A DNA stretch of 32,000 nucleotides. It comes from Horticoccus luteus. Its GTDB lineage: Bacteria; Verrucomicrobiota; Verrucomicrobiia; Opitutales; Opitutaceae. Numbering within the stretch: position 1 is the stretch's first letter; every line of letters starts with the position of its first letter. Location: contig NZ_CP080507.1 of NCBI RefSeq assembly GCF_019464535.1, positions 1,740,001-1,772,000 on the forward strand, read 5' to 3'. A program made the translations under genes and the position numbers. The notes beneath the pieces were generated by a model that searched no databases, was not told where the DNA came from, and saw only the letters and a program-made list of their open reading frames with translations. This document shows, one piece after another, positions 6,131 through 32,000 of this stretch.

Positions 6131-8023
6131 TCAAGCGAGTTGGGCGCGGACCGCGGTCGCGACGGTGGTGGGAAGAAGTTCCGCCAAAGGCGCGCCGCCC
6201 GTGGACGGACAATTCGCGGGCTGCAAAATTTGAACCGGGGCGGCGAACACTGGGCCCGTGCGCACGGGGTTGGTGGGACCGAACAGGGCGATCAGCGGCA
6301 CGCCGAGCGCGTTGGCGAGGTGCATGCCGCCCGTGTCGTTGGTGACGAGCAGTTCGCATTCGGACAGCCCGGCGCAGTATTCGGCGAGAGTTGTGCGGCC
6401 GGCGAGATCGGTGACGCGTGACTCGAAACCAGCGGCGATTTGCTGGGTGATCGGCCGGTCATTGGCCGTGCCGAAAAGCAGCACGGGGCGGTCGGGCGGG
6501 AGGGCTTCGAGCAGATCGCGCCAGTAAGTGACGGGCCAGCGTTTTTCGGGATTGTTTTCGGAGCCGGCGATGAAACCGATCGGACGCGATCCGGGGGGCG
6601 GTGGAGCGCTCGTGCGGATCGGCGTTGTATTGGGTTCGCCCACCAAACCGAAGGCGCGAAGAAAGTGCGTCCACAACTCGAGTTGGTGATGCTGGCGTTC
6701 ATCGAATCCGGGCGGCACGCGAAAGGCGTGCGAAAGGAGAGGCCGGCGCTTGCCTGGCCGCACGAGACCGAAGCGCTGGCGGCAGCCCGTAAGACGGGCT
6801 TCCAGATCACCGCGAAAGGAGTTTGTGAAAAGGAGGTAGCAGTCCGGAAATTCGCGGCGCGCACGCCAGAAATGAGCGAAGTAGCCACGGCCGCGCGGGG
6901 GCAGCGGGCGGATGTGGTCGGCGACGGCGAAGTCGCGCAGAAGGTCCGCAAACGCGGGCTTGGCCACGAGGGTTATTTCGGCGTCGGGACGGGAATGGCG
7001 GATGGCGCGCAGGAGCGGCAGTGCCATCACGACGTCACCGAGCCAGTTGGGGAGGCGAATCCAGAGGCGGGTTTTGCGCGGCAGTTGCATCCAGTTGCGC
7101 AGGCGAAGATCGGTCGCGAGGAAATCGCGTTTGGCTTCGAGTCGCAGGCGGCGCGCGGGCATGTCCTGATTGCGCCAGCGATCGTGCAACCAAAGCCAGG
7201 AGGCGCAGGCGTTGTCGTCGGCTTGCAGGAAGTTTTCGAGCCAACGGTTGAGGTTGATGACGGGCTCTTCGATGCCGGTGCCGGCGTCTAGGCGGTGCGC
7301 ATCGATTTCGTAGGACCAGAAGCCGTGGCGGCGGGGAAACACGCAGACGATCTCGGCGTGGTATTTCTCCACCAGCAGACCTGGTAGTTCGGAGCTGGAG
7401 CAAATGCGCCCGAAGAGCGTCGCGAGTGCGCCCTGCAAGCCCGCATTTTGGTCGAACAGCAACGCCACGAGGCCGCCACGGCGCAGCACCTGCAGCGCCT
7501 CGGAGAATCCGCGTTTGCGGGAAAGCATTTTTACGCCGAATCGCTCGCGAGTCAGGCGCACCCAGGCGTCGAGGACGGGATTGTCGAGGGGACGAAAGAT
7601 CGTGTTGAAAACGGGAGAGTCGGCACCGAGGAGCAGTGGGAGCGCGGTCTGCATTTCCCAGCCGGTGAAGTGCAACGTGGCGATCAGCGTGGGCGTGGAG
7701 GTTTGCACCTGCCGCCGGGAGAGGGCGCGCATCGTGGGTGAGACCGAGGCGATGCGTTGCGTGCGCTCGGCGCTGAAAAACGGCATCGCCAGCGAGAGTA
7801 AACCCGATTCCACCAGCCGATGGGAGCAGGCGCGGGCGATGCCGCGGCGCCAGGCATCGCTCCGCTCAGGGAAAGCGTGATGGAGGTTGGAGAAGAGCAG
7901 GCGTCGGCGACGGCGGAGAACGAGCAGCATCGCGTCGCCCAAGGCGGCGCTGAGGGCCCGCAACAGCGGCACGGGCGAGTGCGCCGTGAGCCAGCCGAGG
8001 ATCTGCAGAAGCAGTTTAAGCAC
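6131..8023 (-). CDS. Fusion protein: N-terminal LpxL/HtrB-type lipid A late acyltransferase domain plus C-terminal glycosyltransferase family 9 (heptosyltransferase-like) domain
   Basis: Single uninterrupted 630-codon ORF with a GTG start at 8023. aa 1-286 carry the HX4E motif (HFTGWE), FDQNAG and the terminal WLWLHDRW typical of lipid A lauroyl/myristoyl acyltransferases. aa ~318-630 carry the GT9 hallmarks RLPNWLGDVVMALPLLRAI, GSENNPEKRWP, LVTNDTGGMHLANALG and LFGPTNP. Confidence 0.85.
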   Translation of the reverse strand: MLKLLLQILGWLTAHSPVPLLRALSAALGDAMLLVLRRRRRLLFSNLHHAFPERSDAWRRGIARACSHRLVESGLLSLAMPFFSAERTQRIASVSPTMRALSRRQVQTSTPTLIATLHFTGWEMQTALPLLLGADSPVFNTIFRPLDNPVLDAWVRLTRERFGVKMLSRKRGFSEALQVLRRGGLVALLFDQNAGLQGALATLFGRICSSSELPGLLVEKYHAEIVCVFPRRHGFWSYEIDAHRLDAGTGIEEPVINLNRWLENFLQADDNACASWLWLHDRWRNQDMPARRLRLEAKRDFLATDLRLRNWMQLPRKTRLWIRLPNWLGDVVMALPLLRAIRHSRPDAEITLVAKPAFADLLRDFAVADHIRPLPPRGRGYFAHFWRARREFPDCYLLFTNSFRGDLEARLTGCRQRFGLVRPGKRRPLLSHAFRVPPGFDERQHHQLELWTHFLRAFGLVGEPNTTPIRTSAPPPPGSRPIGFIAGSENNPEKRWPVTYWRDLLEALPPDRPVLLFGTANDRPITQQIAAGFESRVTDLAGRTTLAEYCAGLSECELLVTNDTGGMHLANALGVPLIALFGPTNPVRTGPVFAAPVQILQPANCPSTGGAPLAELLPTTVATAVRAQLA

Positions 8024-19917: not shown

Positions 19918-20784
19918 ATGAAAATTTACCTGGATGGCAAATTCGTGGACGAAGCAGAGGCGAAGATCTCCGTTTTCGACCATGGATTGCTCTACGGCGA
20001 CGGGGTGTTCGAAGGCATCCGGCTGTATGGCGGGAACGTTTTCCGACTCGAAGAGCACCTGGAGCGGCTCGAGTATTCCGCGAAAGCCATCCTCTTGAAA
20101 TTGCCGCTGTCGCGGGCGGATTTGAGCGCAGCGACGTGCGAGACGTGCCGCCAAAACGGATTGAAGGACGCGTATATTCGCTTGGTCGTGACGCGCGGTG
20201 TGGGCGACCTCGGCCTCGCGCCGTGGCTGTGCCCGAAGCCGTCGTTATTCATCATCGCGAGCAAGATTTCCCTCTATCCGCAGGAATACTACGACAATGG
20301 TCTCGCCATCGTGACGGTGCCGACTCGCCGCATCAATCCGGCGGCACTGCCGCCCACGATCAAGTCGCTCAACTACATGAACAACATCCTCGGCAAGATC
20401 GAGGCGAAGCAGTTCGGCGCGTTGGAGGCGATTATGTTGAACGATCAGGGCTATGTGGCGGAGTGCACGGCGGACAATGTCTTTCTCGTCCACAAAGGTG
20501 AGATCATCACGCCGTCGGCTTCGCAAGGAGCCCTCAAGGGCATCACGCGTGGGACGATCTTCGACATCGCGAAAGAGCTGGGCGTCCCGATGCGCGAGGC
20601 AAACGTGACGCGGTATGATATCTGGTGCGCCGACGAATCGTTTCTCACGGGATCGGGCGCGGAAGTGATACCCGTGGTCAAGCTCGATGGCCGGGAGATC
20701 GGCACGGGGAAACCGGGGCCCATCACGCAGCAGGTGCTGGCGTCGTTTCGTCGGCGTGTGCTGGTTGAAGGCACGCGCATTTGA
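19918..20784 (+). CDS. ilvE: Branched-chain amino acid aminotransferase (fold-type IV PLP enzyme)
   Basis: DHGLLYGDGVFEGIR, EHLERL and KSLNYMNNILGKIEA (PLP-Lys region), with the typical ~290-aa length. Confidence 0.88.
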   Translation: MKIYLDGKFVDEAEAKISVFDHGLLYGDGVFEGIRLYGGNVFRLEEHLERLEYSAKAILLKLPLSRADLSAATCETCRQNGLKDAYIRLVVTRGVGDLGLAPWLCPKPSLFIIASKISLYPQEYYDNGLAIVTVPTRRINPAALPPTIKSLNYMNNILGKIEAKQFGALEAIMLNDQGYVAECTADNVFLVHKGEIITPSASQGALKGITRGTIFDIAKELGVPMREANVTRYDIWCADESFLTGSGAEVIPVVKLDGREIGTGKPGPITQQVLASFRRRVLVEGTRI

Positions 20785-20945: not shown

Positions 20946-21452
20946 ATGGCCAACCCGCTGAAATGTGATCTTTGCTCGAAACCGGCGACCGTGCACCTCA
21001 CGCAGATCGTGAACAACAAAGTGCACAAGATCGACCTGTGCGAAGCGTGTGCGCAGGCGAAGGGCGTCACTGACCCCAGCGGGTTCTCGCTGGCTGATTT
21101 GCTGTTAAAAGCTTCCCTCAATCCCGAGGCCGCGACGACCGGCGTGCGGTGTGAGCAATGCGGTTTCACGCAAACGGATTTTAAGAAGCATGGCCGTTTC
21201 GGCTGTCCCGCGTGCTACGAGACATTCAAAGGCATTCTCGAGCCAATGCTCGACAACATGCACAAGGGCACCGTGCACACCGGCAAAGTGCCGCAACGGG
21301 CACTCGAACGGAAATCACTTTACGACCGCCTGACGAAACTGGAGGTCGATCTCAGCGATGCGATCAAGTCTGAGCGTTACGAGGATGCAGCGCGCTGCCG
21401 CGATGAAATCAACCAAGTCAAACAGTCCGTCGCGACCAAGCCGTCGCGCTAA
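20946..21452 (+). CDS. mcsA: McsA-like activator of protein arginine kinase (zinc-ribbon pairs plus UVR motif)
   Basis: CDLC...CEAC and CEQC...GRFGCPACYETF zinc-finger pairs, HTGKVP, and a C-terminal UVR motif ERYEDAARCRDEINQVK. Colinear with Bacillus McsA as I recall it. Confidence 0.85.
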   Translation: MANPLKCDLCSKPATVHLTQIVNNKVHKIDLCEACAQAKGVTDPSGFSLADLLLKASLNPEAATTGVRCEQCGFTQTDFKKHGRFGCPACYETFKGILEPMLDNMHKGTVHTGKVPQRALERKSLYDRLTKLEVDLSDAIKSERYEDAARCRDEINQVKQSVATKPSR

Positions 21453-21456
21453 CGCC

Positions 21457-22548
21457 ATGGATATTGCCACGCTCATCGACAGTCCGTCCGAGCTCACCGA
21501 TTCAGCGGGGAGCAAGACGGCGATCGTCTTGATGACGCGCGTGCGTTTGGCTCGCAACCTCGACCGCCGTTCGTTCCCCGGCTGGGCCAACGAGCAAGAC
21601 AAGGCGGCGATCCTCGAAACCTGCCGCGCGGCCGTCGCGAGCGCACCGGCGATGCGCCGCGGCCTCAACGTGGCGCTCGCTGATCTCTCAGATCTTGAAC
21701 GCCAGATTCTGGTGGAACGGCATTTGATCAGTCGCGAGCTAAGCGGCGCCAAATCCGGCGCCGGCCTCGTGGTCAGCCGGGATCAAGCGGTCGCGGTGAT
21801 GATCAACGAAGAGGATCACCTGCGGATTCAAGTGTTGCGCTCGGGACTTCAACTGAAGCGGGCGTGGAATACCATTAACGATCTCGATTCCAATCTGGAG
21901 GAGCGGCTCGATTTCGCCTATTCGCCCACGCTTGGGTATCTGACGGCGTGTCCCACGAATCTCGGCACGGCGATGCGCGCTTCCGCGATGATGCACCTGC
22001 CGGCGCTGGTGATTGCGGGGCAGATGGAGAAAGTCGTCCGGGCGGTCAACCAACTCGGCATGGTCGTGCGCGGCTTGTTCGGCGAAGGCTCGGATGCGAG
22101 TGGTAGCATTTTCCAAATCTCCAATCAGACGACGCTCGGTGAGGCGGAGGAAGAGATCATCAAACGCCTCGGCAGTGTGCTGCAGTCGATCATCGATCAC
22201 GAAGTCAACGCCCGCGAAAAGTTGATCGAGTCCGACGCCGGCAAGCTGTTCGACAAGATCGGCCGCGCCTACGGCATTCTGCAAAACAGCCACATGCTCA
22301 GTTCGAGTGAAGCGATGAACTTGTTGTCGCTCGTGCGCCTGGGTGCCGACTTGGGCGTGTTCCCTGCGGAGCAACGTTCGATTATCGACCGCCTCCTCAT
22401 CGAGGCGCAGCCCGGGCATTTGCAGCATGCCCAACGCGGCGAATGTGACCCGAGCCAGCGCGACCTTTTGCGGGCCGCGCGCCTCCGCACCGAATTTGCA
22501 AATTTCGGCCGGCCCGAGTTCTCTCCTTCACGCAACGGCAACAATTAA
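21457..22548 (+). CDS. mcsB: Protein arginine kinase McsB (phosphagen-kinase fold)
   Basis: The start is set at MDIATLI (ATG 21457), 4 nt after the mcsA stop. Motifs RVRLARNL, NEEDHLRIQ, YLTACPTNLGTAMRASAMMHLPAL, VRGLFGEGS and IFQISNQTTLG are shared with McsB/ATP:guanido phosphotransferases. Confidence 0.9.
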   Translation: MDIATLIDSPSELTDSAGSKTAIVLMTRVRLARNLDRRSFPGWANEQDKAAILETCRAAVASAPAMRRGLNVALADLSDLERQILVERHLISRELSGAKSGAGLVVSRDQAVAVMINEEDHLRIQVLRSGLQLKRAWNTINDLDSNLEERLDFAYSPTLGYLTACPTNLGTAMRASAMMHLPALVIAGQMEKVVRAVNQLGMVVRGLFGEGSDASGSIFQISNQTTLGEAEEEIIKRLGSVLQSIIDHEVNAREKLIESDAGKLFDKIGRAYGILQNSHMLSSSEAMNLLSLVRLGADLGVFPAEQRSIIDRLLIEAQPGHLQHAQRGECDPSQRDLLRAARLRTEFANFGRPEFSPSRNGNN

Positions 22549-22563
22549 CCCCTTTACCATTTC

Positions 22564-25092
22564 ATGTCACAAGAACCGATGAATAATTTCACCCCGCGGG
22601 CGCAGCAGGTGCTCGCGCTGGCGCGGAAAGAGGCCGACCGGTTTCACCACAACTACGTGGGCACCGAACATCTGCTGCTGGGCTTGATCAAGCTCGGTCA
22701 GGGCGTCGCCGTGAGCGTGCTCCAGAAAATGGGTCTCGACTTGGAGACGGTGCGTTCAGCCGTCGAGAAGCAGGTCGGCACGGGGCAGGAAAGCAAACCC
22801 GCCGGCAGCATCCCTTACACACCCCGCGTGAAAAAGGTGCTCGCGCTCGCCGGCAAGGAGGCGAAGGCGCTCAACCATTCCTACGTCGGCACAGAGCACA
22901 TTTTGCTCGGCTTATTGCGCGAAGGCGAAGGAGTGGCCGCGCGCGTGCTCAAGTCGCTCGACATCGACATCGAACGCACCCGCAACGAAATTTTGCGTGA
23001 ACTCGATCCTCAGTTTTCCGCCGGTGAAGGCGGTGGCGGCGGCGAGGAATCGGCGGCGGGCAACGGTCCGGTCCGCAGCGGCGGCGGCGGCGGCGAGGAC
23101 AAAAAAGAGGTCAAGACACCGGCGTTGAAAGCGTTCGGCCGCGACCTCACTGAACTCGCGCGCAAGGGCGAGATGGATCCGGTCGTGGGTCGCAAAAACG
23201 AGATTCGCCGTGTCATCCAGATTCTCTGCCGGCGGACCAAGAACAATCCCGTGCTGATCGGTGAAGCCGGCGTGGGCAAGACGGCCATCGTCGAAGGACT
23301 CGCGCAGGAAATCGTGGCCGGCAACGTCCCCGAGATCCTGTTTGAGAAAAAGGTCATCACGCTCGACCTCGCCCTCATGGTGGCGGGCACCAAATACCGC
23401 GGTCAGTTCGAAGAGCGGATCAAAGCAGTGATGGACGAGATCAAACGCGCGAAAAATGTCATCCTGTTCATCGACGAGATGCACACGATCGTCGGTGCAG
23501 GCGCCGCGGAAGGCGCGATGGATGCGTCCAACATCTTCAAGCCGGCGCTTTCGCGCGGTGAGTTGCAATGCGTGGGCGCGACGACGCTCAACGAATACCG
23601 GAAATACATTGAGAAGGATTCGGCGCTCGACCGCCGCTTCCAAAGCGTGAAGGTCGAACCGCCGTCAGTCGAAGACACGATCACGATTTTGAAGGGAATC
23701 CGGAGCAAATACGAAGATCACCACAAGGCGACCTTCAGCGACCGCGCCATCGAGGCGGCGGCGAAGTTGTCGGATCGCTACATCACCGGACGGTTTTTGC
23801 CCGACAAGGCCATCGACGTCATGGACGAGGCCGGTTCCCGCGCACGCATCGCCGCGCTGACCCGTCCGCCGGATGTGGAAAACATGGTGAAGGAAATCGA
23901 CGAAGTCTGCGCTCAGAAAGAGCAGGCGATCGCTGCCCAACGCTTCGAGGAAGCGGCGAAATTCCGCGACCATGAGAAGCAGTTGCGCGCCAAACAGGAG
24001 GAGATCACGGAGTCGTGGAAGAAAGCTCGCGATGAAAAGCGGGTGGAGATCGACGACGAGCTGATGATGCAGGTCGTCGCCGATTGGACCGGCATCCCGC
24101 TGAACCGGATGGAGAAGAAGGACAGCGAGAAGCTGCTCGCCCTGGAAAAGGAGCTGCAAAAGACCGTGATCGGTCAGGACGCGGCGGCCAGTGCGATTGC
24201 GCGCGCGCTCCGTCGTTCCCGGGCGGACCTCAAGGATCCTCGGCGGCCGATTGGCTCGTTCATGTTCGTCGGGCCCACGGGCGTTGGCAAAACGATGCTC
24301 GCGAAGCAACTCGCCGCGCAGATGTTCGGCAACCAAGAGGCGATCATCCAGATCGACATGTCGGAATACATGGAGAAGTTCGCCGTCTCGCGTTTGGTCG
24401 GCTCGCCTCCGGGCTACGTCGGCTACGAAGAGGGTGGGCAGCTCACCGAGGCCGTGCGGCGCAAGCCGTATGCCGTGGTGCTCTTCGACGAAGTCGAAAA
24501 GGCCCATCCCGACGTCATTCAACTGCTGTTGCAAATTTTGGAAGACGGCCGCCTCACGGATTCCCTCGGGCGCACGGTCGATTTCCGGAATACGATCATC
24601 ATCATGACGTCGAACGTAGGCGCGCATTTGCTGCAGCGGCAGACGTCGATGGGATTTGCGGCGGCATCTACGAACATCAATGATTCGGAGAAGATGCGGG
24701 AGAAGGTGCTGGAAGAGTCGAAGCGGGTGTTCAAGCCCGAGTTCCTCAACCGCATTTCCGACATCATCTTCTTCCATCCGCTCACGCGGGATGATCTCGT
24801 GAAAATCGTGGAGCTCGAAACCGCGAATTTCTCGAAACGGCTGTCGGAACGGAAGATCACGCTCGAGTTTACGGCGGAAGCGAAGGCGCTTCTGATCGAG
24901 AAAGGCTACGACGAGAAATACGGCGCGCGTCCCTTGCGCCGCGCGGTCGAGCAATATCTCGAGGATCCGTTGGCGGAAGCGATCTTGCGCGGCGACGTCA
25001 AAGACGGCGAGCCCGTGACCGTTTCGCGCGAAGGCGACAAGCTGGTCTTTCAGCAGCAAACGCCCGCCGCCGACACCGGCGTGGCTCCCTGA
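22564..25092 (+). CDS. clpC: AAA+ unfoldase ClpC (Clp protease ATP-binding subunit)
   Basis: Duplicated Clp_N repeats each carry GTEH(L/I)LLGL. D1 Walker [10 protein letters not shown]-domain UVR motif [12 protein letters not shown]2 Walker A GPTGVGKT, and a ClpP-docking-type loop region. The gene lies 15 nt after mcsB. An alternative start is MNNFTPRA at 22579. Confidence 0.95.
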
Positions 25093-25125
25093 AAGCGCCA
25101 GCCATCTGTGGCCGAAAAAGCCCCG

Positions 25126-25162
25126 GAGCCGCAAGCCGGCCCCGGGGCTTTTCGTTTGATCG
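25126..25162. terminator. Bidirectional rho-independent terminator between convergent clpC and paralog B
   Basis: The stem AAAAGCCCCGG (25126-25136) / CCGGGGCTTTT (25152-25162) has an inner GCCG/CGGC extension. T-runs follow the stem on both strands. Confidence 0.8.
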
Positions 25163-25181
25163 GTGCCGCGAAAAAGAAGGG

Positions 25182-27389
25182 TTACGGAATTTCGTAGACT
25201 TCGATGAGCCCGACGCCCGTCGTGGCATCGGCGCCGGCGAGTTGCACGGTATAAGCGCCGGGTTCCAACGTGAGAATGAAGGCGGCATCCTTCGATCCGG
25301 CCACGAGCGGGAAGGCGCCAACCGTGCTCGAAGTGGTCGCGATCGCGGGGCCGTCGTTGGTTTCCCAATCGTTGTTCGCGGCGATGGCGGTCGCGTTGCC
25401 GTTCGCAAAGAGCGTCAGCGTAGGATCAGCGAGCGTACCGGCAACGCCGTAGGAACCAAGAGTCGGACCTACGCCGCGCACGAGAACCCTCAGGCTGGTC
25501 GCCCCGCGGACAACGAAACCAGCGATCATGATATCGCTGCCGCTACCGACGTAGCCCCGACCCGAGACGTTGATCAACCGGCCTGACGTAGCATTGTAGG
25601 CGGTGATTTCCTGCGCATCGTATACTTCCGCCAAAAGAGGGCCCGTGCCGCCCGCGACACCGGTAACCACGATCGAATAGGGTGCAGGTTCGAGAGCGGG
25701 AGCATAAAGCGCGGCGTCTTTGCTGGTGACATTCGCGAACGGGAAGGCACCGACTCGAGCGCTGAGCTGAACGATATCGGCATCGCCCGCCCAATTGTCG
25801 TTTTCCGCGATCGTCGCGCCGGTCGCTTGCACGGCCAGGCGCAATTGAGGATCGGCGAGGGCGCCGGATACGCCGTAGTCACCGAGAGTGGGGCCGGCGG
25901 CGCGCACCAACGTCGGTTTGGCACCCGGTCCGCCCACGACGGTGCCGACGATGAGCGCCTGGTCGGCCGTGCCGCAAAAGCCGCGGATGGATACGTTCAC
26001 GATGTGCCCGGCACTCGAGGCATCGACGAGCGTGAGGGTGACGGCCGAACTCGTCGTGGTGCCCACGTCGTTGGCAATATCGACGGTGTAGGAGCCGGCG
26101 TTGGCGGAAGTGGCATTGTGCACCATCAACGTCGCGCTGGTCGCGCCCGTGAGGGCCACGTTGTTGAGTTTCCACTGATAGCTGGTCCCTCCGGTTGCGA
26201 CGACAGTGAAGACCGCCGTGCCGCCGGCGACGACCGACTGAGATTGCGGCTGCGTGGTGATGACCGCGGGTGCCGGCGCGGCGGCGCCCGTGACGGTCAG
26301 GACCAAAGGGAGGTTTTGAATACTGAACGCCGCTTGAGAGTTATCCTGACCGACGAGCACGTATGTGCCGTTACCGTAGGCGATATCGTAGGGGAGATAA
26401 CTGCGGACCAAAAAGCCGGACTGGGGCGTCGGATTGGCGGGCAGATATCCGACGGGCGTCCAACTCGCGCCGTCAGCCGAAACCATGTAACCGCTCTTGC
26501 CGGTGGAGAGATCGACGGATTGGGCGACAAATCCTGCACTCGTGAAGCGCGGCGTGCCTCCGGGCGGAAACCAGCCGGTCGGCGCAGTGGTCGTGAGTTT
26601 GGTGAAGGCGACCCCGTCGGCGCTCCGGTATTGGAAGCCGTTCGCCGAGGCCACGAGGATGCCGTTGCCGGCCTCCACGCGGCTGCCGCCCGGCACCGTC
26701 AGGCTGGAAAGCGCCGTCCATGTTTCGGCGTCCGAACTGGAATAAGTCGTGCCGCCGAAGCCATTGATACTGGAGAAGAATTTTCCGTTGGAATAGGCGA
26801 GATCGAGATGGTCGAAGCCGACCGCGTTGGCCACGACGGGACGAGACACCCACGTGACGAGATCGGTCGAAGCGACTTGAGCGCCGTTGCTGGCGGCGGC
26901 GACATACAGCGTCGGGCTGGCATCGAACTCCTGCACGTTGATCCGACCATCGGTGACTTTGTTCGCCGTCCACGTCAGGCCGTCGGCACTTGAGTAGCAC
27001 CACGTAGTGCCGGCCACGCCGCCAAGGGTGTCGCCGAAGCCCGTGAAGAAAATGAATTTTCCGTTAAGGTAGTGAACCTTCGAGGTCTGGAAGGTGACGA
27101 GCGTGCTGTCAGGAAGCGCCTGACTTCGCCCGGTCCAGGTGGTGCCGTCCGGGCTCGTCGCCCAACGGATGACGGTTTCCTTGGTCGACGCGCAGACTGC
27201 AACGAAGAGGCCGTTGCCATAGGCGACGCCGACAAATCCGACGGCTTGAGGATCAAGGACCGCTTTGCCGGCATTGCCAAATGTCGCGTCGAGGCCGGTG
27301 TTGACGACGGTGAACGTGGGTGTCTGGGCAAACGCGGAGACCGCGGCGAGGGCGAGAAGCAAGCCAAGCGAACGAGCGAGGAGGTGCAT
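25182..27389 (-). CDS. Secreted paralog B: signal peptide, ~7-blade Asp-box-like beta-propeller, Ig-like domain and 2x uncharacterised C-terminal module (function unknown)
   Basis: The start is set at MHLLARSLGLLLALAAVSAFAQ (ATG 27389, a good signal peptide). Blades repeat as [Y-G-N-G-x-F-V...S-x-D-G-x-x-W]. The Ig-like segment is ITTQPQSQSVVAGGTAVFTV...YQWKLNN...AGSYTVDIAN. The two C-terminal modules are homologous to those of paralog A. Confidence 0.85.
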   Translation of the reverse strand: MHLLARSLGLLLALAAVSAFAQTPTFTVVNTGLDATFGNAGKAVLDPQAVGFVGVAYGNGLFVAVCASTKETVIRWATSPDGTTWTGRSQALPDSTLVTFQTSKVHYLNGKFIFFTGFGDTLGGVAGTTWCYSSADGLTWTANKVTDGRINVQEFDASPTLYVAAASNGAQVASTDLVTWVSRPVVANAVGFDHLDLAYSNGKFFSSINGFGGTTYSSSDAETWTALSSLTVPGGSRVEAGNGILVASANGFQYRSADGVAFTKLTTTAPTGWFPPGGTPRFTSAGFVAQSVDLSTGKSGYMVSADGASWTPVGYLPANPTPQSGFLVRSYLPYDIAYGNGTYVLVGQDNSQAAFSIQNLPLVLTVTGAAAPAPAVITTQPQSQSVVAGGTAVFTVVATGGTSYQWKLNNVALTGATSATLMVHNATSANAGSYTVDIANDVGTTTSSAVTLTLVDASSAGHIVNVSIRGFCGTADQALIVGTVVGGPGAKPTLVRAAGPTLGDYGVSGALADPQLRLAVQATGATIAENDNWAGDADIVQLSARVGAFPFANVTSKDAALYAPALEPAPYSIVVTGVAGGTGPLLAEVYDAQEITAYNATSGRLINVSGRGYVGSGSDIMIAGFVVRGATSLRVLVRGVGPTLGSYGVAGTLADPTLTLFANGNATAIAANNDWETNDGPAIATTSSTVGAFPLVAGSKDAAFILTLEPGAYTVQLAGADATTGVGLIEVYEIP
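25185..25580 (-). repeat. Paralog B C-terminal module copy 2
   Basis: LINVSGRGYVGSGSDIMIAGFVVRG...LVRGVGPTLGSYGVAGTLADPTLTL...ANNDW...VGAFPLVAGSKDAAFILTLEPGAYTVQLAG...GVGLIEVYEIP(stop). Confidence 0.8.
25617..26006 (-). repeat. Paralog B C-terminal module copy 1
   Basis: IVNVSIRGFCGTADQALIVGTVVGG...LVRAAGPTLGDYGVSGALADPQLRL...ENDNW...VGAFPFANVTSKDAALYAPALEPAPYSIVVTG...GPLLAEVYD. Confidence 0.8.
26025..26267 (-). other. Ig-like (I-set-like) domain of paralog B
   Basis: Pattern Q-P-x-S-x-x-V-x-x-G-x-x-x-x-F-x-V...Y-Q-W...L-x-V-x-N...-G-x-Y-x-V-x-I-x-N, typical of bacterial Ig-like domains. Absent from paralog A. Confidence 0.6.
26340..27242 (-). repeat. About 7 Asp-box-like propeller blades of paralog B
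   Basis: Blade ends at TSPDGTTWT, SSADGLTWT, ASTDLVTWV, SSSDAETWT, RSADGVAFT and VSADGASWT, plus a closing YGNGTYVLVG strand. Confidence 0.7.
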
Positions 27390-27426
27390 GGGGCCGAAAT
27401 TTAAGGCAACTGGCTCGCCCCGAAAA

Positions 27427-27442
27427 TACGCACACGTGCGTA
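27427..27442 (-). promoter_or_regulatory. Palindromic element TACGCAC-AC-GTGCGTA upstream of paralog B (core of the shared 19-mer at 27425-27443)
   Basis: 7+7 bp perfect inverted repeat, 36-54 nt upstream of ATG 27389. A 17/19 identical copy sits at the equivalent position upstream of paralog A (30191-30209). Confidence 0.6.
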
Positions 27443-27451
27443 GATGATGCA

Positions 27452-27481
27452 GCGTCGCGCCCGAGCGGGCGGGCGCGACGC
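27452..27481 (-). terminator. 12-bp perfect GC hairpin directly after the paralog A stop; no U-tract (terminator, attenuator or RNA stabiliser)
   Basis: GCGTCGCGCCCG (27452-27463) / CGGGCGCGACGC (27470-27481) with a 6-nt loop. It lies 6 nt downstream of the TGA (27488-27490) on the minus strand. Confidence 0.5.
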
Positions 27482-27487
27482 GCACGT

Positions 27488-30154
27488 TCATGGCATCGCG
27501 TAAATCTCGACGAGCGCTTCTCCGGTGGTGCCGCCGACGCCGGAAACCTGCACGGTGTAGGCGTTGCCGGGTTGCAGCGTGAGCAACACCGCGGCGTCTT
27601 TGCTCGCGTGCGGAAGGTCGAAGGCACCCACCGTGGTGAACGAACTGGCGAGGGAGGGATCCCAGTCATCATTGGCAGCGATCGGCGAGCCGCCATCGTA
27701 GACCGAGAGTTGCGGATCGGCGAGGGCGCCGGCGACGCCGAAGGTGGTGAGCGTGGGGCCGACAGCGCGGATCAGGAGTTGGCGAGGCCCGGCGCCGCCG
27801 AGCACGAAACCGGCAATGAGAATATCGTTGCCCGTGCCCACACGGAAACGCGTGGAGAGATTAACCATCTTGCGACCATCGTCCGGGCCGGCGTCGTAAG
27901 CTTCTACGAGCACGGAACCGGTGTCGGTGGCGGTCGCTTGCGCCGTGTGGGGGCCGCTGACCGGCTGCAAAAACGCCGCGTCCTTGCTGCCGGCGTCGAA
28001 GGCAAAGGCACCGAGACTCGCGAAGGTTGAGGCGAGCGAGGGATCCCAGTTGTCGTTGGAAGTCACCACCGTGCTACCGTCGAAGAGCGTCACGTTCGGG
28101 TCGCTCACGCCGGCGACACCGAATTGCGCAAGGGCCGGGCCGGCGGCGCGGACGAGGATGGGCTTGGCGCCGCCGTCGACGACGAAGCCGACGATCAGTG
28201 TCTGCGCCGCGGTGGTCGCGGCGCGAACGGAAAGATTGGAAAGGTAACTTGGCGGCGCGGCAACGACGAGGAGGTCGCCCCGCAGAATGGTGCCGGCAGA
28301 GCCGATGCCGACGACGACCGAGTCGTGGGCGACCGTGCGTTCGATGAGAGAATTCGGAGCAAACGAGTTTTCGACAGGTGTCCAGGTCACGCCGTCTGCG
28401 CTGCTGTAGGCGGCGGCGCCATAGCCGGCGCTGCGCGCGATGAACTGATGCCCGACAAACTTAACGCTACTCAGCGCAAAAGTCGTCGGCAGCGCGTTGA
28501 TGGTCCAGTTGGTTCCGTCCGGGCTTGTGACGGATTGCCGATCACTGTTCAGGATGACGAAGCGGTTGTTGCCGTAAGCGATGGACTCCGGGCTGGCGGT
28601 CATGCCGGTCGGCGTGGTGTTGGACCATGCAATGCCGTCGGCGCTGGTGAAGAGTTTAGGCGCGGTGGAACCGTAGCCCAGCATGGCGAGCACGAATTTG
28701 TCGCCGCCGAAGACCAGGCCGACGGTGTTGCCGCCGGAAGAGGCGATGCCGACGGCGGCACTCCACGTGACGCCATCGACGCTGGTGCGCGCGCCGAGGG
28801 CAGTGGCGTCGTAGGCGGCGACAAATTTGCCGTTGCCGCAGGCGACGTCTTTGTAGCGCTCATACTGGGTTCCGCTGACATTGGTCCAGGTGGTGAGGTC
28901 GGAGCTGTGATAGATACCGGCGTAGTCAGCGGTGACGTAACGCGTGCCGTTATAGGTCAGGCGGCCGAAGTTGGCGGTGGTGCCGGTGTTGATTTGGGTC
29001 CACGTCGCGCCATCGGGACTGGTGAGGATCGTACCCCCGGCGCCCGACGCGACGAATTGTGTGCCGTCGAAGATGAGGCCGCTTAGGTCGTTGATCGTGC
29101 CGGTCGACTGCCGTGTCCAAGTCACGCCATCGAGCGACGTGGTGATGGAGCCGTAGGAGCCGAAAACGAAAAAAACGTTGTTGGCGCAGGCCGTCCAGGA
29201 GACGCCTTCGAATTGCGCGCCGAGCTGGCGGGCGGAATTGGGAAGGGCGGAGGTTTGTTTTGTCCAGGAAACGCCGTCCGGGCTGGAAAAGACGAGTTTG
29301 CCGCCGGCGCCCACCACGGCGGTCGGCGAAGCGCATACGGAGATGAGTCCCACGCCGCCTCCGCCACCCGCGAGCGCGTTGGCAATGGTCCATGACGTGC
29401 CATCCGTCGACGTGTAGGCGACCGCGTTGAAATTGTTGTCGCGGCCGACGGCGATGAACATAGTGCCGTTGAAGGCGACATCCGAAATGTAAGGCGCCGA
29501 ATTGCCGATGCTGCCTGCGACGGCGATTTGCGTCCACGTGGCACCGTCCGCGCTCGTGATAACGGAGTTGCCGCTGCCGGCCACCACGAAGCGGCCATTG
29601 CCGTAGGCGCTGCCTTCCGGGATGATCACGGTGTCGGCAGCAAGCGGCGACCACGTCAGGCCGTCGGGACTGGTCAGGACACGGGCGCGAGCGGCGGCGC
29701 CGCCGCCCAAGACCCAGAGTCCGTCGCCATGCACGACAGTGTGATATTGCGCGTTGTAGGAGGCTGCGACTGTGGAGTTGATGGTCCAGTTGATGCCGTC
29801 GGCACTCGTCATCACGAGGCCGGCACCCGACGCGTCCGGCGTGCCCATGCCCACGGCGACAAACAAACCGTCTCCGTAATCGATCGAGTTGAGCACCACG
29901 TTGGCTGTGCTCATGCGTCGAATCGTCCAGGTAACGGTGTCCGGACTGGTGGCGATGGTGCCGTCCGCACCGACAACGACGTAAAGACCGTGGCCGTAAG
30001 CCGCGTCCTTCCACGCGATGGAGGCCGGGAGAGAATTCGCCCACTGCCAGTTTTGCTGGGCGAGCAACGGAAGCACGGCGAGCGCGAGCGGGACCAACCT
30101 CGCGACGGAACGGAACGCGCAATAAAGGGCGCGCTGAACGGTGAGAAATTTCAT
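27488..30154 (-). CDS. Secreted paralog A: signal peptide, 14 Asp-box-like blades (probably two 7-blade beta-propellers) and 2x uncharacterised C-terminal module (function unknown)
   Basis: MKFLTVQRALYCAFRSVARLVPLALAVLPLLAQQ is the signal peptide. There are 13 clear S/T-x-D-G-x-x-W blade ends plus a closing strand. Two C-terminal modules follow. The protein ends ...LVEIYAMP(stop). Confidence 0.88.
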   Translation of the reverse strand: MKFLTVQRALYCAFRSVARLVPLALAVLPLLAQQNWQWANSLPASIAWKDAAYGHGLYVVVGADGTIATSPDTVTWTIRRMSTANVVLNSIDYGDGLFVAVGMGTPDASGAGLVMTSADGINWTINSTVAASYNAQYHTVVHGDGLWVLGGGAAARARVLTSPDGLTWSPLAADTVIIPEGSAYGNGRFVVAGSGNSVITSADGATWTQIAVAGSIGNSAPYISDVAFNGTMFIAVGRDNNFNAVAYTSTDGTSWTIANALAGGGGGVGLISVCASPTAVVGAGGKLVFSSPDGVSWTKQTSALPNSARQLGAQFEGVSWTACANNVFFVFGSYGSITTSLDGVTWTRQSTGTINDLSGLIFDGTQFVASGAGGTILTSPDGATWTQINTGTTANFGRLTYNGTRYVTADYAGIYHSSDLTTWTNVSGTQYERYKDVACGNGKFVAAYDATALGARTSVDGVTWSAAVGIASSGGNTVGLVFGGDKFVLAMLGYGSTAPKLFTSADGIAWSNTTPTGMTASPESIAYGNNRFVILNSDRQSVTSPDGTNWTINALPTTFALSSVKFVGHQFIARSAGYGAAAYSSADGVTWTPVENSFAPNSLIERTVAHDSVVVGIGSAGTILRGDLLVVAAPPSYLSNLSVRAATTAAQTLIVGFVVDGGAKPILVRAAGPALAQFGVAGVSDPNVTLFDGSTVVTSNDNWDPSLASTFASLGAFAFDAGSKDAAFLQPVSGPHTAQATATDTGSVLVEAYDAGPDDGRKMVNLSTRFRVGTGNDILIAGFVLGGAGPRQLLIRAVGPTLTTFGVAGALADPQLSVYDGGSPIAANDDWDPSLASSFTTVGAFDLPHASKDAAVLLTLQPGNAYTVQVSGVGGTTGEALVEIYAMP
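27491..27871 (-). repeat. Paralog A C-terminal module copy 2
   Basis: MVNLSTRFRVGTGNDILIAGFVLGG...LIRAVGPTLTTFGVAGALADPQLSV...ANDDWDPSLASSF..VGAFDLPHASKDAAVLLTLQPGNAYTVQVSG...GEALVEIYAMP. Confidence 0.8.
27890..28249 (-). repeat. Paralog A C-terminal module copy 1
   Basis: LSNLSVRAATTAAQTLIVGFVVDGG...LVRAAGPALAQFGVAGVSDPNVTL...SNDNWDPSLASTF..LGAFAFDAGSKDAAFLQPVSGPHTAQATA...GSVLVEAYD. Confidence 0.8.
28280..30022 (-). repeat. 14 tandem ~40-45-aa propeller blades of paralog A
   Basis: Each unit is [I/V]-x-[Y/F]-G-[N/D/H]-G-x-[F/Y]-[V/I]-A-V-G, then a short loop, then T-S-x-D-G-x-[T/S]-W-[T/S]. Examples are YGHGLYVVVG..TSPDTVTWT, YGDGLFVAVG..TSADGINWT and YGNGRFVVAG..TSADGATWT. Confidence 0.75.
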
Positions 30155-30192
30155 GACCCGCCGAGTCTAACGGCCTCGGGAGACCTGCGGAA

Positions 30193-30208
30193 TACGTAGA
30201 CGTGCGTA
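30193..30208 (-). promoter_or_regulatory. Second, partly degenerate copy of the palindromic element, upstream of paralog A (core of the 19-mer at 30191-30209)
   Basis: Plus strand AATACGTAGACGTGCGTAG against AATACGCACACGTGCGTAG at 27425-27443. It lies 37-55 nt upstream of ATG 30154 and 50 nt downstream of the LuxR-type regulator stop. Confidence 0.55.
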
Positions 30209-30258
30209 GCCTAATTCCACCATCGCGCGGCCGGGCGGTACGACGCGGCGCGACGGAA

Positions 30259-31143
30259 TCAGCGGGCGTCCGGCCGAAGAATTTCCAACGCAGCGACGGT
30301 AGCGGCGGTGCGTGTTTCGCAGCCGAGTTTGCGGAAAATATTTTCCACGTGCTTGTGCACCGTGCGGACGTTGGCGCCCAGAATGGTTGCTACGTCGGGA
30401 TTACTTTTCCCTTGGGCGATCCAATACAGAATCTCCGCCTCGCGGGGCGTCAGGCCGAGCGCAATCAGGGCCGGCGGGCCGAGAGTGGAGCGTTTCTCGT
30501 CGAGCATGAGCAGCACGAGATCAGTGCGCCCGGTTTCCGCGAAACGACGGACATCAAGCGGGGACTCGGCGTCAGCCAGATTCGCCGGGAGAGCGCCGGC
30601 GTCGCGGGCCGGGAAATGCTGGTGCAGGAGATTCTCCGCCCGGCGGGTCGAAAAGACGATGCGCCCGGCGGCATCCACGAGGAGGACGGCGCGATCGAGC
30701 GACTGGCTCAACTCGTTCTCCGCTTCGATGCGCAGCGCGAGTTCGTCGGCGAGGGAGCGTTGCAACGCGCGGATTTGGAGATGGGCGGCGACACGCGCCA
30801 GCACCTCTGGGGGATACACGGGTTTAGTGATGTAATCGACGGCGCCGGCCGAAAATGCGCGGACTTTTTCCGCGGCGTCGTGCAATGCAGTCATGAACAG
30901 AACCGGCACCTCGCGGCACCGCTCATCGCGCTTCAAGATGGCGCAAAGCTCGAAGCCATTCACCTGTGGCATCAGCACATCGAGCAGGAAGAGATCAGGG
31001 GTGTTGTGCGCGAGCAGGGCGAGGGCGCTGGCCGCGCTTTCGGCGACGAGCACATCGTAACCGGCGTCGCTCAGGGCATCGAGCATGAGCGAGATGTTGG
31101 CCGGCGTGTCATCGACCACGAGGACCTTGGCGGGCGGGCTCAT
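30259..31143 (-). CDS. Response regulator: receiver (REC), coiled-coil/PAS-like segment and LuxR/FixJ-type HTH
   Basis: REC: VLVVDDTPANI...LLDVLMPQVNGFE...ITKP. Middle: AVLLVDAAGRIVFSTRRAENLL (PAS-like). C-terminus: LTPREAEILYWIAQGKSNPDVATILGANVRTVHKHVENIFRKLG (LuxR HTH). ATGA overlap with the upstream kinase stop (31140-31143). Confidence 0.88.
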   Translation of the reverse strand: MSPPAKVLVVDDTPANISLMLDALSDAGYDVLVAESAASALALLAHNTPDLFLLDVLMPQVNGFELCAILKRDERCREVPVLFMTALHDAAEKVRAFSAGAVDYITKPVYPPEVLARVAAHLQIRALQRSLADELALRIEAENELSQSLDRAVLLVDAAGRIVFSTRRAENLLHQHFPARDAGALPANLADAESPLDVRRFAETGRTDLVLLMLDEKRSTLGPPALIALGLTPREAEILYWIAQGKSNPDVATILGANVRTVHKHVENIFRKLGCETRTAATVAALEILRPDAR

Positions 31144-32000
31144 GTCACGGGCGAATCGCCGAGGCGCCCGGCCAGTTGCCGGCGGATTGCTTCCATCTGG
31201 AAGGCGGTGGCGGCGATCTCCAACTCGCGCAGCCCGGCATCGGTGGGGAATTGTTTTCGCAGGACCGCAAGGTGTTCACGGAGCGGACGAATTTCGCCGC
31301 GACGCGCGAGATCGAGGAGTTGCCGAAGATCGCGCAGAGGAACGTCACCCGGTGCGGTGGAGCTGAACGGCGACGATGATTCTTCGTAACGCCAAGTGAG
31401 CCGAAGATGGAGGCCGAGTTTCGCCAGCAGTTCGGATTGGCGGAAAGGCTTGGGCAGAAAGTCATCGCAACCCGCGGCAAGCGCTTCGTCGCGATTGAAC
31501 GAGAGCACCGAGGCGGACATCGCCACGATGGCGATGCGCGCGGCGGCAGGGCGCGTGCGCAGGGCGCGCGTGATGGCGATCCCATCCATGTCGGGCATGC
31601 GCAGATCGACGAGCACCGCGTCGAAGGCTTGCGCATCGAATTTCGCAAGGGCGGCGAGTCCCGTGTCGGCTTCTTCGCAAGCGAAACCCAAAGGGGTGAG
31701 CAGCTCCACGAGCACAGCGCGATTCACTGCCACGTCGTCGACGATCAAAAGCCGTCGCCGCGGACCGGCGTAGGCGAGGGGCTGGCGCATGGTCGGCGCG
31801 GAGGCGTCGGCGTCGACGGCGAGCGGTTCGAGCGCGAGTGAGAAGGAGAAGGTGCTGCCGCATCCGAGTTCGCTTTCCACGGTGATCGTGCCGCCCATGA
31901 GCTGCACGAAGCGCTGGGCGATCGCGAGGCCGAGACCGGTGCCGGGCTCGGGTGGGCGCGCGTCCGCCGCTTGATGGAACGGCTGGAAAAGTTGGACTTG
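31140..32000 (-). CDS. Hybrid sensor histidine kinase, 5' part outside the window: end of HATPase_c, receiver domain and an ~86-aa helical tail
   Basis: The reading frame is open to nt 32000. G2-box region FQPFHQA...GTGLGLAIAQRFVQLMGGTITVESELGCGSTFSF. REC: RLLIVDDVAVNR...DLRMPDMDG...LPKP. The C-terminal tail ...LRDLRQLLDLARRGEIRPLREHLAVLRKQFP... has no family I can assign. Confidence 0.85.
   Translation of the reverse strand, partial: QVQLFQPFHQAADARPPEPGTGLGLAIAQRFVQLMGGTITVESELGCGSTFSFSLALEPLAVDADASAPTMRQPLAYAGPRRRLLIVDDVAVNRAVLVELLTPLGFACEEADTGLAALAKFDAQAFDAVLVDLRMPDMDGIAITRALRTRPAAARIAIVAMSASVLSFNRDEALAAGCDDFLPKPFRQSELLAKLGLHLRLTWRYEESSSPFSSTAPGDVPLRDLRQLLDLARRGEIRPLREHLAVLRKQFPTDAGLRELEIAATAFQMEAIRRQLAGRLGDSPVT

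Follow-up and report, generated by a model that had tools for sequence, protein, structure and literature searches.

A conserved palindromic operator with a candidate response regulator and predicted leaderless promoters upstream of secreted β-propeller genes in Horticoccus luteus

A 32,000-nt stretch of Horticoccus luteus DNA (contig NZ_CP080507.1, positions 1,740,001–1,772,000; hereafter the window) contains a 19-mer upstream of each of two paralogous genes for secreted proteins, paralogs A and B. On the comparative evidence assembled here, the 19-mer is a real cis-regulatory DNA site that is kept in front of secreted-protein genes in many Opitutaceae. Each copy probably forms the core of an activator-dependent promoter, and its most likely ligand would be the response regulator encoded next to it. 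The genes concerned constitute a minus-strand series that consists of the 3′ end of a hybrid sensor kinase gene, the response regulator gene, paralog A and paralog B.

Conservation of the palindromic element

The two 19-mers read AATACGCACACGTGCGTAG at 27425–27443 and AATACGTAGACGTGCGTAG at 30191–30209 on the plus strand, corresponding to CTACGCACGTGTGCGTATT (27443–27425) and CTACGCACGTCTACGTATT (30209–30191) in gene orientation. They are identical at 17 of 19 positions and end 36 and 37 nt upstream of the ATG codons at 27389 and 30154, respectively. These values had been given by an earlier sequence-only reading of the window and were exact on recheck. The hexamers TTAAAT (27399–27404) and TTAGAC (30165–30170), to which that reading had drawn attention, were also found in place: each begins after a spacer of exactly 20 nt that follows the 19-mer, and the respective ATG codons are 9 and 10 nt further on. 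A recount of the two spacers reproduced the identity of 5/20.

Each 19-mer is composed of a C, a 16-bp operator and TT. Operator A, TACGCA-CGTC-TACGTA (30193–30208, minus strand), is located upstream of paralog A and is palindromic over 16 bp apart from one mismatch, which falls in the half nearer to the promoter. Operator B, TACGCA-CGTG-TGCGTA (27427–27442, minus strand), is located upstream of paralog B and is a perfect 16-bp palindrome. The palindrome had originally been described as 7+7; it is real in copy B, but its seventh pair is not kept in orthologs and the conserved core has a 6-4-6 arrangement. The pattern CTACGCACGTNTNCGTATT, searched with up to three mismatches, retrieved only the two known sites in the 32 kb, compared with 0.02 expected from shuffled sequences. 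Because this pattern was derived from the data, the independent test is conservation across genomes.

Loci encoding homologs of paralog A or of the regulator were fetched and scanned and are referred to by L numbers; the element was defined by comparison with 13 related Opitutaceae (Verrucomicrobiota) loci. L002 has the same sequence as L166, and some of the loci, such as the close relatives L004 and L083, are not fully independent. Comparison with the orthologous loci identified the 16-bp palindrome TACGCA-N4-TGCGTA (6-4-6) as the selected element. Perfect cores of this form occur 26 times in 1.9 Mb of fetched loci and were absent from ten local shuffles. All of the perfect copies sit in loci with orthologs of paralogs A/B or of the kinase–regulator pair. 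In L168, which is the closest relative and has a regulator 88% identical, a perfect TACGCACCTATGCGTA occupies the place orthologous to operator A, and the site at position 7154 is orthologous to operator B. No match with one mismatch or fewer was found in 79 loci with unrelated REC proteins (772 kb), which were obtained from an 80-locus metagenome scan with a regulator alignment that keyed on generic REC peptides. Among 80 loci of paralog A homologs, a single match, with one mismatch, was found outside L001–L004 and L015 (in L068), and the more distant propeller paralogs among these 80 loci yielded no motif.

An alignment of 17 non-redundant sites preceding secreted-protein genes, anchored on the palindrome, defines the conserved positions of the element. 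The twelve core positions do not vary, the single exception being the mismatch in copy A of the window, and the four positions between the arms show only a bias. The core is preceded by C in 13 of the 17 promoters and is followed by T in all 17 and by a second T in 15, usually as TTC. The spacer between the palindrome and the downstream hexamer is not conserved, with a mean pairwise identity of only 35%. The invariance of the core next to such a divergent spacer substantiates the proposal of the sequence-only reading that the 19-mer reflects selection and not a remnant of duplication. The other elements of that proposal likewise withstood the comparison with orthologous loci, subject to minor corrections.

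Two explanations that do not involve a protein-bound DNA site were weighed against these data. In the first, UACGCA-N4-UGCGUA followed by U residues would fold as RNA and serve as a terminator, attenuator or leader in read-through transcripts. Copy B can indeed form a 6–7-bp stem followed by UUUU and, with all of the genes on one strand, read-through transcripts would contain the element. However, one stem pair is lost in copy A with no compensating change, and in the 17 promoters both arms are invariant in sequence and show no compensatory changes, a pattern characteristic of a DNA dyad that is bound by protein. Only TT, and no U-run, is conserved after the element, and its fixed distance to the −10 hexamer and the ATG, described below, represents a constraint at the DNA level. 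The two upstream regions fold without a common structure (region A, z = −0.21 versus shuffles), the element was not reported by a terminator scan, and a search of the whole window against Rfam at gathering thresholds gave no match. In the second explanation, the 19-mers are left over from gene duplication. A remnant is excluded by the randomised flanking sequence, and the motif also precedes genes that are not paralogs, those of the kinase operon and the gene for a Laminin_G/LCCL protein in L083. Given the lack of covariation, the uncompensated mismatch and the non-paralogous genes behind the motif, an RNA hairpin or a duplication remnant was rejected, and we see only a very slim chance for either.

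Two further arrangements of the motif were observed in the compared loci. In L002 (5853–5899; 9916–9962 in L166), two perfect tandem operators precede a paralog A homolog with a centre-to-centre distance of 31 bp, and only the proximal operator shows the 23-nt spacing to the −10 hexamer; two dimers may bind cooperatively at this site. In L001 (2384–2440), a correctly spaced operator is followed by GAAAGT and by an ATG 8 nt further on, which opens a reading frame of fewer than 64 codons. This short open reading frame (ORF) is in the same frame as a 330-residue ORF that starts at 2629 and could be the product of an assembly frameshift or stop, or could encode a small regulated peptide.

Promoter geometry and predicted leaderless starts

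The palindrome is followed at a fixed distance by a −10-like hexamer, xAxxxT, which in most promoters takes the form TAnnnT (T in 13, A in 16 and T in 16 of the 17). The distance from the palindrome to the hexamer is 23 nt in 16 of the 17 promoters and 24 nt in the remaining one, and G is found at −14 in 14 promoters. In the window, the predicted −10 hexamer of paralog A, TAGACT (30164–30169, minus strand), follows the operator after 23 nt and precedes the ATG by 9 nt, and that of paralog B, TAAATT (27398–27403, minus strand), lies 23 nt past the operator and 8 nt before the ATG. Both are better read 1 nt downstream of the TTARAY hexamers, and TAnnnT is found at the same offset in orthologs. 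The TAG of TAGACT is an in-frame stop codon, so that the ORF of paralog A cannot start further upstream.

Promoter positions were numbered according to the E. coli convention, counting from the predicted −10 hexamer, which is set at −12 to −7. The operator thereby spans positions −51 to −36 and is centred at −43.5. Its centre is located 31 bp upstream of the predicted −10 hexamer in 16 of the 17 promoters and 32 bp upstream in one. The operators abut weak −35-like hexamers, TTCCGC at operator A (30187–30192, minus strand), whose TT is the end of the 19-mer, and TTTTCG at operator B (27421–27426, minus strand). Across the alignment, the −35 position reads TTCCGC, TTTTCG, TTCAGC and similar sequences, which match TTGACA at two or three of six positions. 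A poor −35 sequence is thus combined with a recognisable −10 hexamer, as in promoters of class II type. A generic sigma-70 scan found no full promoter in 25000–32000, consistent with a −35 sequence that is too weak for its consensus rule.

The ATG is located 7–11 nt after the −10 hexamer in 15 of the 17 non-redundant promoters and also in L170. Behind the motif, all starts are ATG codons, and a signal peptide is encoded from each of them. The DNA from the −10 hexamer to the ATG is GC-rich, and no GGAGG-like sequence was found there in the aligned promoters; the one exception, a GAGGA in L004 (2929), would lie upstream of the predicted transcription start site. The lack of a Shine-Dalgarno sequence and an AUG start, two features of leaderless mRNAs, are thus present. 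The predicted transcripts resemble the leaderless mRNAs of lambda cI and of many genes of Actinobacteria, Deinococcus and archaea in having a −10 hexamer a few nucleotides before the ATG, no Shine-Dalgarno sequence and only ATG as the start codon. They differ from these mRNAs in that the start is predicted and may leave a leader of 1–4 nt.

This geometry bears on two proposals of the sequence-only reading. The −10-like hexamer and the near-leaderless transcripts that it had suggested agree with the spacing of 23 nt (once 24 nt) past the palindrome and with the ATG 7–11 nt beyond the hexamer, but the frame in which the hexamer had been read was off by 1 nt. The placement of the palindrome near −42, in a class II-like position that had been marked as speculative, is in line with the centre of −43.5 computed from the predicted −10 hexamer, beside a weak −35 sequence.

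Other gene starts of the window were also inspected. Among 18 starts, hardly any has a Shine-Dalgarno sequence, and a TAnnnT-like hexamer is found 6–8 nt before the ATG at several (19918, 11519, 22564, 13673 and others inspected), such as TAGTCT followed by 7 nt at the start at 19918. Leaderless or Shine-Dalgarno-independent initiation may be general in the H. luteus genome.

The adjacent response regulator as candidate binder

The response regulator gene (294 residues; 30259–31143, minus strand) is located 50 nt upstream of operator A. The encoded protein consists of a REC domain (Response_reg, E = 1e-27), a long helix, a small PAS-like domain and a GerE/LuxR-type helix-turn-helix (HTH) domain (GerE, E = 3e-15). 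In its AlphaFold model (predicted local distance difference test score, pLDDT, of 84), a 38-residue helix (residues 111–148) leads to a β-β-α-β-β domain (residues 152–216), for which a Pfam search of the middle region gave only a faint PAS match (E = 0.21). The REC domain is closest to PleD, and alignments to VraR structures were obtained for the GerE part. The gene for the hybrid sensor kinase (31140–32000, minus strand) is represented by its 3′ end, which encodes HATPase_c and REC domains and continues beyond the window. Full-length orthologs of the kinase contain ∼1280 residues, in which a Reg_prop/Y_Y_Y periplasmic sensor is followed by a HisKA-HATPase-REC arrangement. In some relatives (L081, 1330–9064; L166, 620–8840), two tandem Reg_prop/Y_Y_Y hybrid kinases are encoded upstream of the single regulator, and in L081 an operator is located between the two kinases, before the second one.

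The regulator family is large in Opitutaceae, with 761 proteins at E ≤ 1e-40, most of which are ∼70% identical. The recognition helix of the HTH domain, RTVHKHVE, is invariant in five aligned orthologs. In 39 homologs, only V262 varies, and it is present in at least 90% of the sequences. The invariance of the recognition helix parallels that of the operator.

The motif and the regulator are linked in the compared genomes. In the window and in L001, L002, L003, L081, L167, L168 and L170, the kinase and regulator genes or their orthologs immediately precede the genes that bear the motif, and the motif is carried by nine of 11 loci with a regulator ortholog versus none of the 79 loci with unrelated REC proteins. 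In five loci, the motif also precedes the kinase–regulator operon itself, as a perfect copy in L003, L081 and L170 and with one mismatch in L002 and L171, which suggests that the operon may be autoregulated. These kinase-type sites have a geometry of their own. At L002 872, L003 1150, L081 5179 and L170 6128, the palindrome is followed after exactly 16 nt by TTGAC(C/T/G), and the spacing at L171 6063 is 21 nt. The TT after the core is not conserved at the kinase-type sites, and no clear −10 hexamer was found 16–18 nt past TTGAC in these promoters. The motif in nine of 11 loci, five of them with a copy before the operon of the regulator, provides circumstantial but good support for the neighbouring LuxR-type regulator, which the sequence-only reading had nominated as the protein to footprint.

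The element has the form of sites that are recognised by GerE-type regulators. NarL uses its GerE domain to bind, as a dimer, inverted repeats of the 7-2-7 type that are 16 bp in length, one example being TACCCCTAAAGGGGTA, and the napF and yeaR sites are located at −40 to −49 and −38 to −47, respectively (PMC4549865). In ogt1052, one 7-2-7 site with its centre at −44.5, located 32 bp before the −10 hexamer, is enough for activation (PMC9314961). The operator described here can be written TACGCAn-nn-nTGCGTA, which is 16 bp in length with two heptamers 2 bp apart. As at the NarL/NarP-dependent yeaR, napF and ogt-derived promoters, it is a 16-bp inverted repeat with TAC...GTA as the outer bases, and a single site at approximately −42.5 to −44.5 suffices there, with 32 bp to the −10 hexamer versus 31 bp here. 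A two-component response regulator with a GerE-type HTH domain that acts as a dimer is common to both, although here it is a candidate binder only, encoded nearby with the REC and GerE domains of a cognate regulator.

The two systems also differ in several respects. In the 7-2-7 reading, the promoter-proximal heptamer is usually TACGCAT, one position off the NarL heptamer consensus TACYYMT, and the inner half-site is GCA here versus CCC/CCT for NarL. NarL is a 216-residue protein with a REC-linker-HTH arrangement, in contrast to the 294-residue regulator with its PleD-like REC domain, long helix and PAS-like insert, and the NarX/NarQ sensors contrast with the ∼1280-residue Reg_prop/Y_Y_Y hybrid kinase. 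Further differences are the phylum, Verrucomicrobiota, the secreted propeller proteins as targets and the prediction of leaderless transcripts. The module is thus an analogue of the NarL regulon and not a member of it, having TACGCA(Y) with G at position 4 and a different sensor.

The module resembles LuxR/TraR-type class II promoters in having a dyad, here a probable site for a GerE-family HTH dimer, next to a poor −35 sequence. The lux box is centred at −42.5, beside or overlapping a poor −35 sequence, and both of its arms are required (PMC3376562). It is 20 bp in length and has no sequence similarity to the operator, and LuxR is controlled by binding of acyl-homoserine lactone instead of by phosphorylation. 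The kinase resembles the hybrid two-component systems (HTCS) of Bacteroides polysaccharide utilisation loci, in which a Reg_prop/Y_Y_Y sensor is likewise followed by HisKA-HATPase-REC and the sensor gene adjoins regulated genes for secreted or surface proteins. In HTCS proteins, however, an AraC-type DNA-binding domain is part of the same polypeptide, whereas a separate REC-GerE regulator is encoded here and, unlike in Bacteroides, no SusC/SusD or carbohydrate-active enzyme genes were seen in the regulon of the loci examined.

Several observations weigh against recognition by this regulator or against the promoter geometry proposed above. L084 and L169 encode regulator homologs that are 70–73% identical and have neither the motif within 8–20 kb nor an A-type gene; L169 shares the aconitase–LysR neighbourhood of L081 and thus looks like a positional ortholog. 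Conversely, L083, L164 and L165 carry the full promoter module without such a regulator within 10 kb, so that either the regulon can be dispersed or the binder is something else. The kinase in L167 has no upstream site, and the kinase-type sites would be centred at approximately −59.5, which puts them out of helical phase with −43.5 by about half a turn. Three promoters (L165 9934, L004 4887 and L083 12800, the last two near-identical) have 22–42 nt from the −10 hexamer to the ATG, and not all members would therefore be leaderless. Finally, we infer the −10 hexamer, and hence the centre of −43.5 and the leaderless start, from consensus and fixed spacing only.

The motif genes without a nearby regulator and the regulator homologs without the motif would be compatible with a genuine operator that is bound by another protein, either the LysR-type regulator encoded beside the kinase genes or an unlinked factor. 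A LysR gene precedes the kinase genes in L081, L166, L169 and L171 and is found further upstream in L167. However, L168 and L170 carry motifs with no LysR gene in the stretch examined, and the LysR and aconitase genes are divergently oriented, the layout classically found where such a regulator controls its neighbour. The LysR box is an odd-length T-N11-A sequence, which the even 16-bp dyad with TAC...GTA ends does not fit, in contrast to the GerE 7-2-7 form. The presence of the motif in nine of the 11 regulator loci and before five kinase–regulator operons likewise speaks for the adjacent regulator, and we consider another binder unlikely.

The location of the operator next to the −35 sequence also allows a repressive role to be envisaged. 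A dimer of the response regulator or of another protein, bound at −51 to −36, would occlude polymerase by blocking sigma region 4 or the C-terminal domain of the alpha subunit until a signal arrives, and NarL itself represses at some 7-2-7 sites, such as that of frdA (PMC4549865). Repressor sites, however, usually overlap the −35/−10 core or the transcription start site, as does the frdA site at −4/+6 (PMC4549865). A poor −35 sequence is typical of activator-dependent promoters, and the strict 23-bp phasing to the −10 hexamer suggests a stereospecific contact with polymerase. At the kinase-type sites, where the operator lies further upstream, 16 nt before a good TTGAC −35 sequence, occlusion is unlikely. 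Repression is accordingly rated as improbable, and we infer that the site would be used for activation.

In the activation mechanism that we favour, the hybrid kinase, whose orthologs bear the Reg_prop/Y_Y_Y periplasmic sensor, would act as the partner of the regulator in response to a presumed signal. A dimer of the phosphorylated NarL/FixJ-type (GerE) regulator would bind TACGCA-N4-TGCGTA and, at −43.5 beside the weak −35 sequence (TTCnnn), would recruit RNA polymerase in a class II manner. Transcription would start at the ATG or 1–4 nt before it and would yield leaderless mRNAs for paralog A and, independently, for paralog B. Such mRNAs would need no Shine-Dalgarno sequence. With an operator copy of its own before each gene, paralogs A and B would be separately inducible members of one regulon, which in related genomes would also take in the kinase–regulator operon.

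Genes behind the operator and the wider regulon

Paralog A (888 residues; 27488–30154, minus strand) contains a signal peptide, a tandem β-propeller (DUF6242/BNR-like) and a C-terminal tandem β-sandwich. Paralog B (735 residues from the ATG at 27389; 25182–27389, minus strand) contains a signal peptide, a propeller, an immunoglobulin (Ig) domain and the same C-terminal tandem domain. The two proteins are 34% identical to each other. The homologs of paralog A are Opitutaceae proteins, the best match being 62% identical. Its AlphaFold model (pLDDT 86) consists of a double β-propeller and two β-sandwiches, and a structure search of the PDB with this model retrieved double propellers of a generic kind only, PorZ being the top match, which point to no particular function. 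The C-terminal tandem domain comprises approximately 2 × 125 residues (25182–25950 and 27488–28260, minus strand), and an E-x-Y-x-x-P sequence is conserved at the extreme C-terminus. A Pfam search with this domain of paralogs A and B gave no match. The domain is present in every gene that was found behind the operator elsewhere, including those for Ig-only and Laminin_G/LCCL proteins, and it may be a sorting or anchoring module.

The reading frame of paralog B extends without a stop codon to an upstream ATG at 27491 that shares bases with the TGA of paralog A (ATGA), and gene-calling software could therefore predict a 769-residue paralog B in which the operator and the promoter are absorbed. 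The ATG at 27491 was rejected as the start, given that it adds 34 residues before the signal peptide and places the operator, the promoter and an intergenic hairpin in the coding sequence. This GC-only 12-bp hairpin, GCGTCGCGCCCG-N6-CGGGCGCGACGC (27452–27481, minus strand), lies between the stop codon of paralog A, 6 nt away, and operator B, 9 nt away. Most of the stability of the intergenic fold (z = −2.9) derives from this hairpin, which has no U-run after it. It may be a U-less terminator or attenuator that separates the transcription units of paralogs A and B.

On the other side of paralog B, convergent plus-strand genes (20946–25092) encode a UVR-domain protein, a McsB-like arginine kinase and ClpC. 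This cluster corresponds to a Firmicute-style protein quality control system and is syntenic in L081, L166, L167 and the contig of P0002.

To our knowledge, the promoters, the operators and the initiation of translation of Verrucomicrobiota are almost unstudied, and the majority of Opitutaceae have not been cultured. Limited text searches of the literature did not retrieve any paper that describes the motif or reports leaderless promoters in Verrucomicrobia. A search on the half-sites together with a response regulator retrieved primer coincidences only, and a search on two-component systems of Opitutaceae retrieved nothing relevant. We tentatively propose, as a possibility that is still open to considerable doubt, that the module represents an undescribed Opitutaceae regulon, in which an HTCS-like kinase would signal to a REC/coiled-coil/PAS-like/GerE regulator that controls leaderless genes for secreted double-propeller proteins with a C-terminal tandem β-sandwich, and that leaderless initiation is general in this lineage.

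The module described here is an operator–promoter pair, with a 16-bp dyad, a 23-bp spacer, a TAnnnT −10 hexamer and a predicted leaderless ATG, together with a candidate regulator and the outline of a regulon of secreted proteins. It leaves the understanding of this class of regulation unchanged and adds a well-defined example from an unstudied lineage, which is useful and not surprising. Possible applications are regulon scans, linking a widespread family of regulators to the DNA that it recognises, and building inducible promoters for use in this phylum.

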